NCBI RefSeq assembly: GCF_051465655.1
Contig: NZ_CP195791.1
Location: 4,880,734 to 4,912,733 of the forward strand
Source of the DNA: Planctomicrobium sp. SH661
GTDB lineage: Bacteria > Planctomycetota > Planctomycetia > Planctomycetales > Planctomycetaceae
DNA: 32,000 nt
Direction: 5' to 3'
Shown: positions 3,188-24,493 of the stretch, one piece after another
Layout of the letters: every line of letters starts with the position of its first letter
How positions within the stretch are numbered: position 1 is the first letter of the stretch
Notes under the pieces: generated by a model
Told to the model about the DNA's origin: nothing
Database searches by the model: none
Seen by the model: only the letters and a program-made list of their open reading frames with translations
Made by a program: the position numbers and the translations under genes

Positions 3188-4600
3188 TCACGATTCGGGT
3201 GTGTTGAGCGACCGCCACCGACCGCTCTGGCTCAACAGATCTCCCAAAAAGGCGACCAGACAAGGTCCAATCCACAGACCAGCAGCATCCGTCATGCGTC
3301 CGATGGGTGGACAGACGACGATCACGAGAATCAGACTCATCGCCGCGTAGGCTGCTGCAATGACGAATAGCAGTCCTGCATTCTCGAAAGTCCGGTACGG
3401 GATGATCTTCGATTTCCAGATCCAGCGCGTCACAATGTGAAGGCTGATGAAGACCACACCCACGAACGTCAGCAGCCCTCCCATGGGATTGAAGACGAAA
3501 TCTCCCAAGAGCTTGAAAATGCATTGCCGGCTCGCCTTCAGCAGCCAGATCACGTACAGCCGAGGGTGCTTTTCGACAAGTTCCAGTCCCAGGCGTTTCA
3601 GCTGAGTGTTGACCAGCACTGGATCGTCCCCATACACCTCGTGAGCCGCCGGAGTAAAGACGCTCCAGATGAACAGATCGCTGTTCGACTCCATCCTGAT
3701 GTAGCTGGTCGGTCCCAGCTCGACATACTGGAAATCACGCAGTGGAATCGACCGCAGTCGGTTCATCGCTGCCTGCGCAAGTGGACGAAGTTCTTCCGAG
3801 ATGAGCGGGAGAGTCTTCTCATCCATGAACTGGCCGGAGATTCCGATCAGGTTATAGCCTCCGAAAGCCACGATCGAAAACTTGCCGACCACCGCCAGCC
3901 GCAAGCTGCAATAGAGAATCAGCGGCACCAGTCCGATCACACTGCAGATCCCCAGACTTCGAAGAAATGAAAGGACATTCCCCGATTCCGGTCGCGACCG
4001 TAGTCTGAACAGCGGAGTCAGCACCAGAACGAATGGGACGAGAAACAATGCCGCTGGCCGGATCAGCCAGGCCGACAAAACAGATGCCGCAAGAAGGATT
4101 CCCCACAACACGGATCGTCGCGGATCGCTTCCCCAGAGCAACATGAAGCCCACGCTCGCAATGCCGCAGGCCCCTCCAAGGGTGTCGGTCGCGATGGTCG
4201 AGACGAACAGCCACAGGTTATTGGTTGCCAGCAGCGCTCCCGCGATCCAGGGACTTAACCACGGCGGAGTTCCGCTGGCGAGCAGACCAGCATGAAAAAC
4301 CATGACTGCGAAAGCAAAGCAGCCATACTGCAATAACGACACTGGTCTTAAGTCGCTGCCCAGCTGTCTCACTGCTGCAAGAAAGAGGGGATACCCCGGC
4401 GTCCTCTGGTGGTTCAACGTGCCCTTCAACGAGTTGAGAGGCATGTTTGCATAGGACGCAGTGTCGTTCACTTCGACAGAGACCAGTTGCCCCGTGGCCG
4501 CCAGCAGGCAACCGGTCATCAGAATCAAAATGACAAGCAGCCCCCAGGCGAATCCTCGAGTCGAAATCAATCGCAACATCACTGTGCCCTCCAGTTGCAA
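3188..4600 (-). CDS. polytopic integral membrane protein, possibly a GT-C fold glycosyltransferase (GT39/ArnT-like)
   Basis: 470 aa ORF with many hydrophobic helices. The first loop (NDTASYANMP...RTPGYPLFLAAV) resembles the acidic-loop plus R.PGYP.FLA pattern I associate with GT-C / PMT_2-type enzymes. Only the fold-level call is supported, and it was not checked with an HMM. Confidence 0.6.
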   Translation of the reverse strand: MQLEGTVMLRLISTRGFAWGLLVILILMTGCLLAATGQLVSVEVNDTASYANMPLNSLKGTLNHQRTPGYPLFLAAVRQLGSDLRPVSLLQYGCFAFAVMVFHAGLLASGTPPWLSPWIAGALLATNNLWLFVSTIATDTLGGACGIASVGFMLLWGSDPRRSVLWGILLAASVLSAWLIRPAALFLVPFVLVLTPLFRLRSRPESGNVLSFLRSLGICSVIGLVPLILYCSLRLAVVGKFSIVAFGGYNLIGISGQFMDEKTLPLISEELRPLAQAAMNRLRSIPLRDFQYVELGPTSYIRMESNSDLFIWSVFTPAAHEVYGDDPVLVNTQLKRLGLELVEKHPRLYVIWLLKASRQCIFKLLGDFVFNPMGGLLTFVGVVFISLHIVTRWIWKSKIIPYRTFENAGLLFVIAAAYAAMSLILVIVVCPPIGRMTDAAGLWIGPCLVAFLGDLLSQSGRWRSLNTPES

Positions 4601-4669
4601 TGACCGACCACATCGAGCAGCTGTACCATCCCATTCAACAAAGGTGCGGCCGGCGCGATGTCGTCTTGT

Positions 4670-5803
4670 TCACCGCTGTTCTCTTGCAACATTACGAAGG
4701 ATCTCTGCCCCCCGCAGCAGGGTTTCATCCGGAGCTGCATAGGAAATGCGGAAGTGAGTGTCCTGCTCGCTGAAAACGTTTCCTGGAATGATCAGCAGTT
4801 CATTCTCAATGGCCCGTTTCACGAATTCCGTCCCTGTTCCCCACGGGGCACGCGGGAAGAGATAGAACGCTCCCTGAGCCCCTTCAATTTCAAAGTCTTC
4901 CGAGAGTTCGCGAATCATCAGTTCGCGCTTCCGCTGGTAGTCGGCAGCCCGGTCGCTGATGTCGTAGTTCCACGCTGTGCACGCGGCCCACTGCACCGGA
5001 TGGGGAGCACACACGAATGTGAACTGCTGCAGCTTGATCATCTGCTGCAGAATGTGTTCGGGACCATGGCACCAGCCAATCCGCCAGCCCGTCATTGAAT
5101 GGGACTTGCTGAACCCGTCGATCACAATGGTCTGATCGTAGAACTGAGCCGGACTGACAAACTTTCCTGGAGGCGAGAAAGCGCGGTAGATCTCGTCGCT
5201 GAGCAATGCGATGTCATGCTCCCGGGCGATTTCGGCCAGTCCCCGCACTTCTTCTTCCGAAGCGACGTAGCCTGTCGGGTTGCACGGGCTGTTCAGAAGG
5301 ATCAGCTTTGTCTTCTCGTTGATCGCTTCCCGGACCTTGTCCAGCGGGATACGAAAATCAGGGTACGTGGAAATCGAGCGGATCTTTCCCCCCGTCAGCG
5401 TCGTGAGATGCTTGTACATCACGAAATACGGATCGAAGACAATGACCTCATCTCCGGGATTGAGCAGCGTGCACAGCGTGAGCATCAACCCGCCGCTCGT
5501 GCCGCTGGTGATGAACGCCTTGCGGTCCGAATGGTGATATTCTTCTGTGATGCTCGCCTGGATCATCTCCAGCAGAGGCTTGATGCCCTGGGTCTGGCTG
5601 TAGGCGTTCTTCCCCTCTTCCACTGCTTTCTCGAGTGCTTTACGGATCGGCTCCGGCGTTTCGAAATGTGGCTGCCCGATGCTCAGATTGACCGGGTTGG
5701 CCATGTTCGCAGCCAGATCGAACACTTTCCGAATCCCGGAGGCATCGATCTTCGTCATCCGGTCGGCGATCCAACGTTCACTCATAAGGTCACTCGAATT
5801 CAT
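4670..5803 (-). CDS. pyridoxal-phosphate-dependent aminotransferase, class I/II (aspartate aminotransferase-like)
   Basis: 377 aa ORF. NPCNPTG motif, a DEIY segment, and SKSHSMTGWRIGW containing the Schiff-base lysine context (SKs..mtGwRiG). Confidence 0.9.
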   Translation of the reverse strand: MNSSDLMSERWIADRMTKIDASGIRKVFDLAANMANPVNLSIGQPHFETPEPIRKALEKAVEEGKNAYSQTQGIKPLLEMIQASITEEYHHSDRKAFITSGTSGGLMLTLCTLLNPGDEVIVFDPYFVMYKHLTTLTGGKIRSISTYPDFRIPLDKVREAINEKTKLILLNSPCNPTGYVASEEEVRGLAEIAREHDIALLSDEIYRAFSPPGKFVSPAQFYDQTIVIDGFSKSHSMTGWRIGWCHGPEHILQQMIKLQQFTFVCAPHPVQWAACTAWNYDISDRAADYQRKRELMIRELSEDFEIEGAQGAFYLFPRAPWGTGTEFVKRAIENELLIIPGNVFSEQDTHFRISYAAPDETLLRGAEILRNVAREQR

Positions 5804-12135: not shown

Positions 12136-12164
12136 GGGAAGAAGGGGACAGGGGTCAGGGGACA
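12136..12164. repeat. G-tract / heptamer repeat, GGG-N5-(GGGGWCA)x3, abutting the gatB start codon
   Basis: GGGAAGAAGGGGACAGGGGTCAGGGGACA directly follows CAT (12133-12135). It has the same heptamer core as the 23391-23449 array. Confidence 0.8.
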
Positions 12165-12215
12165 GCGAAGAGAGAGTAGTGTATGGAACTGGTTGCGTTT
12201 GTCACATCGGATGGG

Positions 12216-13503: not shown

Positions 13504-13613
13504 ATCACCTTGTCGATTGAAATCCTTGTTTGAATTCACCTTGCCGAATGGGTCGGCGTCACAGCCTTTGAGCTGAAGTTCCCGTTTTTTTGTCCTCCAG
13601 GTTCGAGAATCCA

Positions 13614-14162
13614 ATGGTCACTCTGACACGGTACATCACGGCCGAAGAATACGGTCAGATGCCTCGTTCGGGGACCGTTACGGAACTGGTGCGAGGAGAA
13701 ATTGTGGATTTCAACCAATCATTCCCGCGTCAGGGACAGGTCTGTGCTGCGGTTTCCTATGCACTGAGCAGACATCTGGAATCCGCACAGCTGGGTCATG
13801 TCGTCGTGAATTCCGGCATCCTCACGTCCCGCAATCCGGACACGGTGCGGTGCGGGGATGTCTGGTACGTCTCGTATCGCAAGGTTCCTCGCGGCCCCTT
13901 GCCAAAAGGCTATCTGGATGTTTCGCCGGACATCGTGTTCGAAGTGAAATCACCCGGTGACCGCTGGGGCCAGATTCTCGCGAAAGTCGCGGAGTATCTG
14001 GATCTCGACGTGGGAGTGGTGTGTGTCCTCGATCCCGAGGAAGAGATGGTTCGGCTGTACTACGCCGACCGCCCGGAAGTGATTCTGGCGGGAGAAGATC
14101 CCGTCACGTTTCCCGAGCAGCTGCCCGGGTTCGAAGTTCAGGCACAGAAGTTTTTTCAATAG
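13614..14162 (+). CDS. Uma2-family (DUF820) putative endonuclease, PD-(D/E)XK-like
   Basis: The ORF track entry starts at TTG 13590. I prefer the ATG at 13614 (MVTLTRYITAEEY...). A T.EEY start, TELVRGEIV, and the PDIVFEVKSPGD segment (D...E-x-K) are typical of Uma2 proteins. Confidence 0.8.
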   Translation: MVTLTRYITAEEYGQMPRSGTVTELVRGEIVDFNQSFPRQGQVCAAVSYALSRHLESAQLGHVVVNSGILTSRNPDTVRCGDVWYVSYRKVPRGPLPKGYLDVSPDIVFEVKSPGDRWGQILAKVAEYLDLDVGVVCVLDPEEEMVRLYYADRPEVILAGEDPVTFPEQLPGFEVQAQKFFQ

Positions 14163-14246
14163 AGAACGCGTTCACGGGTGAGCGGGCGATTCGTCCGTCA
14201 GTCAGGTTCGCATTGTAGAAGTCGTTTCAAGTTGGCAGGAATTGTA

Positions 14247-18860
<4,614 letters not shown>

Positions 18861-18872
18861 CGGAGAAAAAAA

Positions 18873-18910
18873 GATTTCACCACGGAAGGCACGGAAATCA
18901 CGGAAGAAGA
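18873..18910 (+). repeat. arm A: (CACGGAANN)x3 nonamer-periodic repeat immediately after the gltB stop
   Basis: GATTTCAC CACGGAAGG CACGGAAAT CACGGAAGA AGA, with units at 18881, 18890 and 18899. Confidence 0.85.
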
Positions 18911-19018
18911 AATTGAATTGAGGTCTCTAACTCCCTGTGAGGCAGTTGGAGTGATCGGAGACTTAAAAGTAAAAACAAGTTAAACGTCTGACTGAAAGAT
19001 CAGGGCTGCCGGACGAGA

Positions 19019-19056
19019 AGTTTTTCCGTGCTTTCCGTGTCTTCCGTGGTTAAAAA
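19019..19056 (-). repeat. arm B: inverted copy of arm A, upstream of the GxxExxY gene
   Basis: TTTTTCCGTGCTTTCCGTGTCTTCCGTGGTTAAAAAA, with TTCCGTG cores at 19024, 19033 and 19042. The reverse complement matches arm A at 26 of 29 positions, and two of the three differences would be G-U pairs in RNA. Confidence 0.85.
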
Positions 19057-19073
19057 ATTCTTCAGGTCAAGTC

Positions 19074-19448
19074 ATGGCGCTGATTTACGAAGAAGAGTCG
19101 TACGCCATCCTTGGAGCATGTTTTGAGGTTTACAACGAGATGGGGCCAGGGTTTTTGGAGTCGGTATACCAGGAGTGCCTCGCGTTAGAATTCGCTTCAC
19201 GAGGCATTCCATTTGTTGCGAAGACAGGCCTGCTGCTTCAATACAAGAACGTGAAACTCACTCAGACTTACGAAGCCGATTTTGTTTGTTTTGGGAAGAT
19301 TATCCTCAAGATTAAAGCGGTCAGCAGCCTGCATGAAGTTTTTCGAGCTCAGCTCTTGAACTATCTGGCTGCCACGGACTTCAAGCTTGGATTTTTAGTC
19401 AATTTTTGCAGCCACCCTAAATTGGAATATCAAAGAATCGCACGTTAG
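19074..19448 (+). CDS. GxxExxY protein (small PD-(D/E)XK nuclease-superfamily member)
   Basis: 124 aa ORF. The eponymous motif is GFLESVY in ...GPGFLESVYQECL.... An E-x-D...K-type core (YEADFVCFGKIILKIKA) is present. G+C is visibly lower than in the flanking gltB/gltD: my hand counts on single 60-nt lines gave about 40-52% versus about 58%. Confidence 0.85.
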   Translation: MALIYEEESYAILGACFEVYNEMGPGFLESVYQECLALEFASRGIPFVAKTGLLLQYKNVKLTQTYEADFVCFGKIILKIKAVSSLHEVFRAQLLNYLAATDFKLGFLVNFCSHPKLEYQRIAR

Positions 19449-19461
19449 TGAAATTCATCTG

Positions 19462-19506
19462 TCTTCTTTCATTTCCGTGCATTCCGTCTCTTCCGTGGTT
19501 AAGAAG
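19462..19506 (-). repeat. arm C: second inverted copy of the nonamer-periodic arm, ending 9 nt before the gltD ATG
   Basis: TTCTTTCATTTCCGTGCATTCCGTCTCTTCCGTGGTTAAGAAG, with cores at 19473, 19482 and 19491. It is a direct repeat of arm B and inverted relative to arm A. Confidence 0.85.
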
Positions 19507-19514
19507 TATTCGTC

Positions 19515-21035
<1,521 letters not shown>

Positions 21036-22437: not shown

Positions 22438-23382
22438 TTATTGCGTGATCAGCTGGCGAATCATCATGATCGCTGCCGGACCGACGAGCACCACAAAAAT
22501 CCCTGGAAAGATGAAAAGCACCAGCGGAAAGATCATTTTCACAGCGGTCATCGCTGCTTTTTCTTCCGCCAGCTGGCTGCGCTTGATCCGCATGGCGTCG
22601 GACTGCACCCGCAAAGCATGTGCGATCGATGAACCGAACTTGTCAGCCTGAATCAGAATAGCTGCGAGGGCTTTGACGTCATCCACTCCGGTGCGGACCC
22701 CCAGGTCATGCAGCACTTCGCGTCGATTTCGCCCCATCTGCAGTTGAAAATTCGAGTGATTGATCTCATAGCAGATGTCCTTGGCTCCGTCACTCAGCTC
22801 TTCAGCCACCCGACGCATGGCTGCATCCAGCCCTAGCCCGGCTTCCACGCAGACCACGAGCAGATCGAGCGCGTCCGGCAAAGACAGGAAGATGCGACTC
22901 TTACGGGAATGTGCCATCAGTCCCAGCACGATGTCGGGCAGGAACATTCCCAGACCCCCGCCGATTCCTAACACCATCAATCCTTCCGTGGTGAGCCCTT
23001 TGGTGTACAGACCGATCCCGCCTCCCAGGACCAGTCCAACCAGCAGGGAAATTGTTTTGATCGCCAGGAAGAACGTGCTGGCATGCGGTGAAGAGAACCC
23101 GGCATTCGCCAGTTTGACTTTCAGCTTGCTCTCTTCGAGTTCCGTCTGAGGGGTCAGCACTTTCGAAATCGCCGGGGCGGCTTTTTTCAGTGCAGAGCCG
23201 ATTCCGGTCGCTTTGGAATCCGGTTCTGCCCCACGCTTCCGGGGATCCTTCAACTCCTGCAATCGCTCCGAGACCCGCGTGTCGCCAGCGTTGGTGAACG
23301 CAGCCGCGATCGCCCAGACCCCAACCATCACAGCTCCGAAAACGGCGAGCGGCAGCAGATTCGAGAAGGAGGAAATGTCCAT
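22438..23382 (-). CDS. tadC: type II secretion system F-family protein, TadC-like pilus platform protein
   Basis: 314 aa ORF. N-terminal TM helix, a cytoplasmic T2SSF domain (LPDALDLLVVCVEAGLGLDAAMRRV) and C-terminal TM helices. It follows the TadB-like gene. Confidence 0.85.
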   Translation of the reverse strand: MDISSFSNLLPLAVFGAVMVGVWAIAAAFTNAGDTRVSERLQELKDPRKRGAEPDSKATGIGSALKKAAPAISKVLTPQTELEESKLKVKLANAGFSSPHASTFFLAIKTISLLVGLVLGGGIGLYTKGLTTEGLMVLGIGGGLGMFLPDIVLGLMAHSRKSRIFLSLPDALDLLVVCVEAGLGLDAAMRRVAEELSDGAKDICYEINHSNFQLQMGRNRREVLHDLGVRTGVDDVKALAAILIQADKFGSSIAHALRVQSDAMRIKRSQLAEEKAAMTAVKMIFPLVLFIFPGIFVVLVGPAAIMMIRQLITQ

Positions 23383-23390
23383 GGGTGAAA

Positions 23391-23449
23391 GAGGTCAGGG
23401 GTCAGGGGTCAGGGGTCAGGGGTCAGGGGTCAGGGGTCAGGGGTCAGGG
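23391..23449. repeat. tandem heptamer array GAGGTCA + (GGGGTCA)x7 + GGG in the tadB-tadC spacer
   Basis: Counted directly: the TCA of each unit ends at 23397, 23404, 23411, 23418, 23425, 23432, 23439 and 23446. The array begins 8 nt beyond the tadC start codon (CAT 23380-23382). Confidence 0.95.
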
Positions 23450-23503: not shown

Positions 23504-24493
23504 TTAAACTTTAATTGCAATGATTTTCTTGATCGTGATCGCACCCAGAATCTGAAGCACAATTGCCACCGCAACCATCTTCCGTCCAAGGTCATCGGTG
23601 AACAGCAACATCACATAGTCCGGGTTCAGCCGCCAGACGGCAAAGAACAGCAGAATCGGCAATGCCATCAGCACGATACCGCTGATTCGACCTTCCCCAG
23701 TCAGGGCCTGCACCTGTCCGAGGATGCGGACTCGTTCCCGGATAATATGGCCGATCTTGTCGAGGATTTCCGCGAGGTCCCCGCCGGACTGCCGTTGAAT
23801 CGCCACAGCCATGGCGAAGAACTTGTAGTCCATGTTCGGCATGCGGACATAAAGATTTTTCAGGGCATTCTCGAGAGGAATCCCCAGATTCTGCTCTTCG
23901 TAAGCAATATTGAATTCCTTGGAGATCGGGTCGGGAAGTTCATCCACCACGACCTTCATCGCCGATGCCAGCGAGTGCCCTGATCGCAGTGCCCGCGCGA
24001 TCAGTTCCATCGCGTCCGGCAACTGGCTTGCAAACTTCTTGAACCGTCGTCCCCGCATAAACATCAGCCAGCCGAATGGAAGCATCGCACCGGCCAGAAC
24101 AGCGAGAGGATAGATCGGCAACGGGACCCGAGCGATCACAGAGCCGACAAAGCCTAAAACTCCGCAAACGACCATGATGATGCAGAATGTTTCCGGCTTC
24201 ATCTTCGTGTCAGCCTGAAGATACAGCAGCTTCAGATTGGCGAAGCGGTCCATCAAATTGGAAACGAAGACCGACAGTCCGCTGAGCCCCTCTTTAACCA
24301 GGGCTTCCCGGGTCACCTTGGGACCTTCCGTCTGAGCCGCCTTCTTCCCCGCCAGGACGTCCAGACGTTCTTCGACCGAGCTGCTGCTGGAAGAATCCAG
24401 GAGCAGGACGATGGCGCCGATCAACCCCGTGACACCGACAAAGGCGATGATCGACGTGACGAACGGACTGAGTGTAAACGCAAGAAGCATCAT
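23504..24493 (-). CDS. tadB: type II secretion system F-family protein, TadB-like pilus platform protein
   Basis: 329 aa ORF. N-terminal TM helix, a T2SSF domain (LPDAMELIARALRSGHSLASAMKVV) and C-terminal TM helices. It lies downstream of cpaF. Confidence 0.85.
   Translation of the reverse strand: MMLLAFTLSPFVTSIIAFVGVTGLIGAIVLLLDSSSSSSVEERLDVLAGKKAAQTEGPKVTREALVKEGLSGLSVFVSNLMDRFANLKLLYLQADTKMKPETFCIIMVVCGVLGFVGSVIARVPLPIYPLAVLAGAMLPFGWLMFMRGRRFKKFASQLPDAMELIARALRSGHSLASAMKVVVDELPDPISKEFNIAYEEQNLGIPLENALKNLYVRMPNMDYKFFAMAVAIQRQSGGDLAEILDKIGHIIRERVRILGQVQALTGEGRISGIVLMALPILLFFAVWRLNPDYVMLLFTDDLGRKMVAVAIVLQILGAITIKKIIAIKV

Follow-up and report, generated by a model that had tools for sequence, protein, structure and literature searches.

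The junction between gltB and gltD in Planctomicrobium sp. SH661 holds a small gene of the GxxExxY family that is accompanied by inverted arms, each a head-to-tail array of three 9-nt units. We analyzed this insert within a 32-kb stretch of contig NZ_CP195791.1 (positions 4,880,734 to 4,912,733; the whole stretch is hereafter called the window) and followed both the gene and its arms through metagenomic loci and related genomes. The insert is one copy of a hairpin-bracketed GxxExxY cassette that is widespread, and we regard this description, taken as a whole, as very probably correct. The GxxExxY protein family has been catalogued, with its function listed as unknown (PMC3424549). We found no published description of the periodic arms or of the cassette in a literature search that covered subscription papers incompletely, so an earlier mention is possible. 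Likewise, no Rfam family or defense model for the arms or the cassette was found.

The evidence for a family-wide hallmark comes from an unbiased sample of 80 metagenomic loci encoding relatives of the gene product (the cargo); counts are given over the 81 loci with sufficient sequence. An arm was scored as three consecutive C-R-C-N-R-A-W units, 1–4 nt apart and within 150 nt of the gene. By this measure, a forward arm lies upstream in 74/81 GxxExxY loci, compared with 2.2 in shuffled flanks, and a reverse arm lies downstream in 76/81, compared with 1.5. Other GxxExxY genes are thus flanked by similar arms, as the first-pass annotation, made from the letters of the window alone, had supposed they might be. 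The arm unit follows a 9-nt consensus, C-R-C-N-R-A-W-N-N, usually with three units per arm, and its core differs by locus (CACGAAA, CGCGAAT, CGCGAAA, CACGGAA, TACGAAA, CACCAAA and others). Distant members of the family that are 33–36% identical (Bacteroides finegoldii, Bernardetia) have CACAGAG nonamer arms. The commonest architecture, found at 43 loci, is forward arm, gene, reverse arm, and most other loci add arms to that plan. Two arms are the norm; an extra (third) arm is present at about 10/81 loci, and the forward–reverse–gene–reverse layout seen in the window accounts for 2/81. The mirror-image layout (forward–gene–forward–reverse) occurs at L071, L158, L193 and L194, and a hairpin–gene–hairpin form was also found. 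One mirror-image locus, L071 (Gallionella metagenome-assembled genome (MAG), 4190–4790), combines arms of two core types, with a CACGAAA-type forward arm upstream and a complete CACGGAA-type hairpin, including four reverse units, downstream.

Across the family, the stems average ~30 bp and are 88% complementary, with 95% pairing at core positions and 64% in the 2-nt spacers. In a gap-free alignment of 23 arm pairs (alignment A3), 89.1% of the cells are paired, compared with 80.7% in shuffles. Two-sided changes occur at 20/30 pairs of this alignment, a level reached by 0/500 shuffles, and sliding the partner as a control lowers pairing to 35–50%. Where units differ within one arm, the differences are mirrored in the other arm in antiparallel order (L136, L125 and L193). 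The first-pass annotation had named arm covariation as a check on its pairing scheme, and the signal is present: the two arms co-vary position by position and are true pairing partners.

At the gltB–gltD junction itself (Table 1), the window copy is a minority three-arm variant in which the cargo lies between arms B and C. Profile matches to the flanking genes (NF008730 and TIGR01317) confirm the initial observation that a 654-bp insert separates gltB and gltD. From the gltB stop codon to the CC at the start of arm A is 18 nt, and arm C ends 9 nt ahead of the gltD ATG. Exact CACGGAA heptamers number 13 in the 32-kb window, 8 of them inside the 654-bp spacer, with a whole-window expectation of 5.7 ± 2.5; the ninth unit, in the middle of arm C, is the variant GACGGAA. 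With that one substitution, the three arms of three CACGGAA units each are as first described, although the bounds then given ran a few bases wider than the repeat cores. Tandem Repeats Finder reports period-9 arrays at 18881–18906 and 19023–19048. The insert is also more AT-rich than its surroundings, as had been noticed (GC content of 0.43–0.50, versus 0.55–0.65 in the flanks, a drop of 10–15 points), and the A–B spacer lacks an ATG.

Table 1. Coordinates of the insert, its parts and the flanking genes within the window
Feature	Position	Strand	Remarks
gltB, glutamate synthase large subunit	14178..18860	+	NF008730 1698.7 bits; GATase_2, Glu_syn_central, Glu_synthase and GXGXG domains
Whole insert, 654 bp	18861..19514	+	gene-less hairpin (A–loop–B), cargo gene, arm C
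Arm A, forward: CC + (ACGGAANNC)x3	18875..18908	+	units at 18881, 18890, 18899
A–B hairpin loop, AT-rich, 112 nt	18909..19020	+	without open reading frame, without ATG
Arm B, reverse: three CACGGAA units on the minus strand	19021..19054	-	closes local hairpin with arm A
Cargo gene, GxxExxY / PDDEXK_3, 124 aa	19074..19448	+	TIGR04256, PF13366
Arm C, reverse: CACGGAA, GACGGAA, CACGGAA on the minus strand	19462..19505	-	direct repeat of B
gltD, glutamate synthase small subunit	19515..21035	+	TIGR01317 751.2 bits

Arm A is 88% complementary to arm B across 34 nt and 83% complementary to arm C across 30 nt, in agreement with the proposal that A can pair with either. The computed duplex energies are −50.4 kcal/mol for A–B and −45.1 kcal/mol for A–C. 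The minimum-free-energy fold pairs A with B (fold z-score −2.6), and when B is blocked in folding, A instead pairs with C at 31 of its positions. Arms B and C, compared across 34 nt, form a direct repeat of 91% identity. They had been likened to cassette ends; the direct repetition stands, whereas the canonical ends, judged across the family, correspond to A and C. Arms A and B are best read as a complete gene-less hairpin beside the cargo. Their loop contains no detectable GxxExxY gene remnant; its only resemblance, a weak one, is to loops of hairpin elements (~165 nt) from a Planctomicrobium MAG. No further arms were found in the window besides A, B and C. A promoter/terminator scan detected no promoter-like site and no plus-strand terminator-like site in the insert; the only two terminator-like sites that it returned lie on the minus strand inside gltB. 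Rfam covariance models gave no match at E≤10 in 18700–19700 and no gathering-score match in 10 hairpin loci, and 8 cassette loci yielded sub-threshold miRNA-precursor noise on the long hairpin and nothing else.

Comparison with relatives shows how the cassette behaves at a single site. We examined gltB–gltD junctions in six relatives with GltD proteins 79–89% identical (L201–L206: Planctomicrobium sp. SH527 and SH668, Maioricimonas rarisocia and three metagenomic contigs). Their spacers span ~100–300 nt and contain neither the GxxExxY gene nor arms, providing the empty sites that the first-pass annotation had thought to look for. A metagenomic planctomycete contig with a GltD 66% identical (L121) carries a cassette at the same gltB–gltD site, laid out as forward arm, 290-nt spacer, reverse arm, GxxExxY gene and reverse arm, with gltD 13 nt later. 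The 26-nt core of arm A, CCACGGAAGGCACGGAAATCACGGAA, is identical to the L121 forward arm, "variable" dinucleotides included. The L121 cargo has an in-frame TAG at codon 51 (L121 1540–1542) in an otherwise well-conserved open reading frame (ORF), which could mark a pseudogene, a sequencing error or read-through. Relatives have either the complete cassette or none of it, and it is gained or lost as a unit. For gltB–gltD, the history may have been an ancient insertion followed by recurrent clean losses, or recurrent insertion into this one junction. The empty sites of the six relatives are too diverged for base-by-base alignment, and a target-site duplication is not definable there.

Across the family, the cassettes occupy short operon junctions, and in 61/68 loci the cargo reads in the same direction as the ORF upstream of it. 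The median distance from the stop codon of that ORF to the left arm is 7 nt, and that from the right arm to the following start codon is 14 nt. The recurrent sites, which are junctions of conserved operons, include nuoK–nuoL (7 loci), a lolD-type ATPase/FtsX-type permease junction (5 loci) and gltB–gltD (2 loci). At nuoK–nuoL, lolD–ftsX and a third recurrent site, cargo identity ranges from 57 to 89% and tracks flank identity. Same-site orthologues differ at a proportion of 0.44–0.91 of synonymous sites (pS, saturated in most pairs) and 0.06–0.29 of nonsynonymous sites (pN), and dN/dS is about 0.04–0.10 where computable. Near-identical copies at different sites were absent among 84 loci, the best cross-site protein identities being below 90%. 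Because identity tracks the flanks, synonymous sites are saturated and pN is low, the gene and arms are long-term residents under strong purifying selection, not recently transposed DNA. The structured, possibly mobile cassette first proposed therefore survives as a discrete unit that is gained or lost, but recent mobility is contradicted by the saturated synonymous divergence and the purifying selection. Phage or plasmid carriage was considered and rejected, with essentially none in either source: close relatives of the cargo occur at 2 loci in viral contigs (IMG/VR) and on 8/72,556 plasmids, mostly megaplasmids.

The arms evolve in an unusual manner. Between same-site orthologues, the core heptamer changes in concert in all six units, and the nearest protein neighbor has the same core in 33/84 cases, versus 14% by chance. 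Strict protein–arm co-specificity was dropped on this account, core type being only weakly associated with protein relatedness. Since the cores change in concert yet track protein relatedness loosely, the pattern seems to point to homogenization among the repeats and not to strict protein–site co-specificity.

The cargo matches TIGR04256 (131.3 bits, cut-off 35, residues 8–122) and PF13366 PDDEXK_3 (128.9 bits, cut-off 22). It has no other Pfam or NCBIfam match, and hence no HUH/Y1 (IS200/IS605-like) transposase domain. PADLOC and PHROGs profiles gave no family at E≤0.01, and a sequence search of the Protein Data Bank found no relative, only a marginal unrelated match to Pcc1. An AlphaFold model of the cargo (predicted local distance difference test score, pLDDT, 91) has as its top structural neighbors in Foldseek Cas4 SSO0001 and lambda-exonuclease-type nucleases, with marginal E-values of ~1e-3. 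The predicted structure confirms a Cas4/lambda-exonuclease-like PD-(D/E)XK fold. Across 120 homologues, the family conserves G26/E29/Y32, E39, D69, E79-x-K81 and Q93-x-x-x-Y97; the first three form the name-giving motif, which is near-invariant and present in the cargo. Position 79 (codon 79, window 19308–19310) is Glu in 119/120 homologues and Lys in the window copy only. The window cargo keeps D69, K81 and all other invariant residues in an intact ORF, and its catalytic D...(D/E)-x-K triad is incomplete. Because E79K removes the catalytic Glu, the window copy is probably inactive, judging by the general PD-(D/E)XK mechanism. The nuclease-type fold assigned in the first-pass annotation is thus upheld, for a copy that has lost its catalytic Glu.

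The arms also exist without the gene. A scan for ACGGAANNNACGGAANNNACGGAA, using one genome per species, returned at least 120 loci. Among the matches listed, arm loci occur in Planctomycetota, Verrucomicrobiota, Bacteroidota, Acidobacteriota, Gemmatimonadota, beta- and gamma-Proteobacteria, Firmicutes and two archaeal MAGs. Most of the listed matches are hairpins without an ORF, consisting of CC ACGGAAnnC ACGGAAnnC ACGGAA, a loop of 6–340 nt and the mirror image, and a GxxExxY gene stands beside the arm in 4/121 sources among them, the window included. Crude ORF calls, too noisy in high-GC DNA to be relied on, place the gene-less hairpins between convergent genes in 19 cases, co-directional genes in 23 and divergent genes in 5. 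CC-ACGGAA nonamer hairpins in archaeal MAGs (L021 5531–5648 and L060 6009–6080; Methanobacteriota, Methanosarcinaceae) may come from bin contamination. Pure tandem arrays of ACGGAA-containing nonamers, with 9–14 or more units, were also seen (L007 6–120, L114 7–130, L014 1638–1851 and L036 1504–1771), partly at contig ends and in Gemmatimonadetes, Chlorobiaceae and Helicobacteraceae MAGs among others; they may be expanded arms, coding repeats or unrelated sequence.

Two loci bear on the origin of these hairpins. One Planctomicrobium MAG contains three ~165-nt hairpin copies with a common, diverged ~115-nt loop, so that the hairpin is a repeated element in that genome. In L124 (1900–2330), two more forward–reverse arm pairs follow an intact GxxExxY cassette, and their ~200-nt loops score weakly as GxxExxY remnants (E-values of 1e-6 and 4e-5). 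On these matches, L124 is an array of decaying cassettes, and some gene-less hairpins, at the least, are therefore decayed cassettes. Other hairpin loops yielded no gene remnants; the apparent loop at L082/L199 was the gene itself.

A parallel was found among four-helix-bundle genes. The search seed was a four-helix-bundle consensus, and its matches were confirmed as PF05635/PF22296. These PF05635/bAvd-like genes are promoterless inserts between co-oriented genes, at operon junctions. AGGRTTCR octamers form inverted arms around them at L207, L211, L227 and L235, with the L227 arms being 34 nt long and 88% complementary, and CACTGTY heptamers do so at L212 and L218. At L211, nine octamer units are translated into the N-terminus of the called protein, and L218 has six heptamers versus three in its near-identical neighbor L212. 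The PF05635 family is named after 23S rRNA intervening sequences (PMC10053308). The four-helix-bundle arms thereby link the cassette to the single known case of a small ORF carried inside a long host-transcript stem.

What the arms do is less certain than that they pair. The account that we favor, and to which as a whole we give an even chance, has the insert looped out of its host message. The cassette would be transcribed only within the gltB–gltD mRNA, by read-through from gltB. In the transcript, the arms would pair as a ~30-bp stem, A–B first and locally, with A–C around the gene as the alternative. The stem, which would probably provide double-strand-specific (RNase III-type) processing or an insulating structure as in the ORF-bearing 23S rRNA intervening sequences, would leave gltB and gltD expressed and give the cargo its own stabilized transcript. 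Slippage and template switching among the tandem units would keep the six units alike, which would explain the concerted change of core sequence. An RNA-level role for the arms is supported by the upstream co-orientation, the operon-junction spacing, the lack of a promoter-like or plus-strand terminator-like site in the insert and stems of −45 to −50 kcal/mol. It is also supported by the retention of arms around a probably dead nuclease (E79K in the window, the in-frame stop in L121) and by the analogous arms of four-helix-bundle genes, which belong to the family that occurs in 23S rRNA intervening sequences. We would place such a role at, or slightly short of, an even chance.

The 23S rRNA intervening sequences are the closest precedent for this account. 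ORF-bearing examples were reportedly described by Burgin in 1990 and by Ralph and McClelland in 1993. As in the cassette, a long inverted-repeat stem within a host transcript surrounds a small ORF, and distribution is sporadic between relatives; the periodic inverted arms of non-rRNA four-helix-bundle genes in operon junctions extend the likeness. The rRNA stem is removed by RNase III with host RNA function unharmed, a fate that is putative for the stem of the cassette. The host also differs, being an mRNA operon with the insert between two protein-coding genes instead of a 23S rRNA helix, and so do the nuclease-fold cargo and the arms of 9-nt tandem units with a conserved core.

Several observations weigh against a looped-out mRNA stem. 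If such a stem were selected, an excess of G–U over A–C mismatches would be expected on the sense strand; this test was unsupportive, with 54 mismatches of G–U type versus 73 of A–C type, and 25 versus 25 at the spacer positions. Given this symmetric spectrum, pairing is not shown to be selected specifically in the sense RNA. In the 2-nt spacers, moreover, pairing reaches only 64%. A purely structural RNA role would need no conservation at the sequence level, yet such conservation is seen across phyla in both the heptamer core and the 9-nt period. Finally, some solo arms are arrayed in direct orientation. In an Opitutaceae MAG (L029, 4900–7700), CACGGAA- and CGCGAAT-type reverse arms alternate every ~58 nt, at least 4 times, and in a Prosthecobacter MAG (L065, 6780–7500), four 222-nt tandem repeats carry one forward arm each. 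Such arrays cannot fold into hairpins; multiplication of the arms therefore takes place at the DNA level as well.

These points lead to the strongest alternative, a DNA element resembling a REPtron, in which repetitive extragenic palindromic (REP) sequences flank the gene for a REP-associated tyrosine transposase (RAYT). Here, the GxxExxY nuclease would recognize the arms as terminal sites, each end offering three binding units; by cutting or binding them, it would mobilize, home or maintain the cassette as well as the derivatives that lack the gene, and RNA pairing would be a by-product. We consider this possible, though doubtful. The near 1:1 association of gene and arms speaks for it, as does an arm type that goes with the cargo family (9-nt units for GxxExxY, 7- or 8-nt units for four-helix-bundle genes); yet core type changes among close proteins and same-site orthologues, the nearest neighbor sharing the core in 33/84. 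The fold is that of a Cas4/lambda-exonuclease-type DNA nuclease with D...ExK and QxxxY motifs, but the 124-aa protein is a bare nuclease core, and arms are conserved around one copy without the catalytic Glu and another with a stop codon. A DNA element would also accommodate the conservation of core motif and period as sequence across phyla and the symmetric mismatch spectrum. Multiplication is suggested by the gene-less hairpins in many genomes, by the diverged multi-copy ~165-nt elements of the Planctomicrobium MAG, by the tandem arrays of solo arms and by the decayed GxxExxY remnants in L124 hairpin loops beside an intact cassette. The presence or absence of the complete unit from one relative to the next also fits a DNA element. 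Even so, no sign of recent transposition was seen: orthologous-site copies are as diverged as host genes and under strong purifying selection. No target-site duplication is definable, and members of the family are hardly ever found in phage contigs (2 loci, IMG/VR) or on plasmids (8/72,556).

REPtrons and the related REPINs have reportedly been described by Nunvar in 2010, Bertels and Rainey in 2011 and Ton-Hoang in 2012. RAYT transposases act on the REP sequences flanking them. In both systems, a small nuclease-type gene lies between inverted copies of a short repeat, and the gene is vertically inherited and long-persisting, unlike a typical insertion sequence. The REPtron repeat is also abundant on its own, forming hairpins between genes, usually at their downstream side; for the arms, gene-less hairpins of this kind are known from many genomes other than SH661, a Planctomicrobium MAG included. 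The cargo here has a PD-(D/E)XK fold of 124 aa in place of the HUH Y1 transposase of the REPtron. Each REP is an imperfect palindrome, whereas the arm strings three 9-nt units together head to tail and lacks internal dyad symmetry. The cassettes also lie inside operon junctions and are predicted to depend on read-through, and recognition of the arms by the cargo is putative.

The insert could instead be an inert relic, that is, a decaying passenger whose arms are conserved only through youth or mechanical homogenization and which has no present function. The lost catalytic Glu of the window copy, the in-frame stop in L121, the degenerate unit in arm C and the close relatives that lack the insert with no obvious consequence are all compatible with decay. 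We judge it improbable, given an ORF that is in all other respects undamaged and retains every other invariant residue, a forward arm identical over 26 nt to that of L121 despite a gltD only 66% identical, and strong purifying selection on gene and arms across the family. A dedicated switch, as suggested in the first-pass annotation, in which mutually exclusive A–B and A–C helices would gate gltD translation or stability on some signal, is thermodynamically possible, both helices being very stable with A pairing with C once B is blocked, arm C ending 9 nt ahead of the gltD ATG, the three-arm layout recurring at the same site in L121 (gltD only 66% identical) and its mirror image (F–gene–F–R) found elsewhere (L071, L158, L193, L194); it is very unlikely all the same, as the extra arm is present in only about 10/81 loci and is also accounted for by adjacent gene-less hairpins, which are common anywhere, the region has no riboswitch or other Rfam match even at E≤10 and no terminator after the arms, six relatives run gltBD without arms, and A–B is more stable and transcribed first, so that A–C should rarely form.

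Among described elements, the cassette is kin to hairpin-bounded intergenic elements (REPtrons, intervening sequences and miniature inverted-repeat transposable elements (MITEs)) but a member of none. Integron cassettes share with it a promoterless small gene, expression by read-through (predicted for the present cassette) and imperfect inverted-repeat boundaries, and the window gene sits between the direct arm copies B and C much as a cassette sits between two attC sites. In contrast, no integrase or attI is found nearby, the arms lack attC organization, the family-wide plan is one forward and one reverse arm instead of one site per gene, and the cargo always belongs to the same family. The Neisseria Correia elements are MITE-like transcribed hairpins with no gene, non-periodic 26-bp ends and a TA duplication. 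Like the cassette, Correia elements and MITEs are short, lie between genes, have inverted repeats at their ends and exist in many gene-less copies, and they are transcribed together with their neighbors, as is predicted for the cassette; a cognate cargo gene and periodic ends set the cassette apart. Correia stems are RNase III substrates that alter mRNA stability, a property that the cassette stems may share. Transposons with terminal inverted repeats and MITEs offer a further resemblance in their ends, the arms here being ~30 bp and 88% complementary family-wide.

A broader idea joins the two gene families, and we offer it tentatively, as a proposal more apt to fail than to hold. GxxExxY and stand-alone four-helix-bundle (Avd-like) genes may be cargos of one unrecognized class of operon-junction cassette, bounded by inverted arrays of 7–9-nt units. 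Each protein would recognize its own arms, spread or persistence would proceed via gene-less hairpins with matching arms (by homing or gene conversion into these empty hairpins), the paired arms would make the insertion harmless to the operon, and the 23S rRNA intervening sequences would be a special case.

The neighborhood of the insert adds several observations. The ten neighboring ORFs that were scanned include GatB, a LysR regulator, Uma2, STAS, thioredoxin, type II secretion system (T2SS) F and E proteins, DUF1501 and one ORF without a Pfam match; none is an integron integrase. Between the LysR regulator and gltB lies a Uma2-family "putative restriction endonuclease" gene (PF05685, 190 aa, 13590–14162, plus strand), which leaves 15 nt between its stop codon and the start of gltB and whose product matches the PADLOC candidate system PDC-S03 (E 9e-11). 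With this gene beside gltB, the gltBD operon carries a second small PD-(D/E)XK-type passenger; a search for periodic arms around it found none. Farther along, a perfect heptamer tandem, (GGTCAGG)x8 at 23393–23449, fills part of a 120-nt gap between two co-oriented T2SS-F-type genes on the minus strand (22438–23382 and 23504–24493). The array has no inverted partner in the window, and AGGGGAC x3.3 at 12143–12165 is a short, imperfect relative of it. Similar heptamer arrays flank some four-helix-bundle genes, and the cyanobacterial short tandemly repeated repetitive (STRR) sequences are likewise comparable.

Of the small bacterial families without a known function, GxxExxY (PF13366) and four-helix-bundle (PF05635) are two of the most expanded. 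A family-wide nucleic-acid hallmark, consisting of periodic, co-varying inverted arms in operon junctions and of gene-less hairpins that range from Bacteroidota to Planctomycetota and extend to two archaeal MAGs, provides a concrete handle on how both families spread and persist. The arms define a substrate for testing the GxxExxY protein and predict processing sites in operon mRNAs, and their signature offers a simple means of finding thousands of cassettes and derivatives. If the arms insulate insertions in essential operons, they would represent a general route by which genes hitch-hike on host transcription without polarity.

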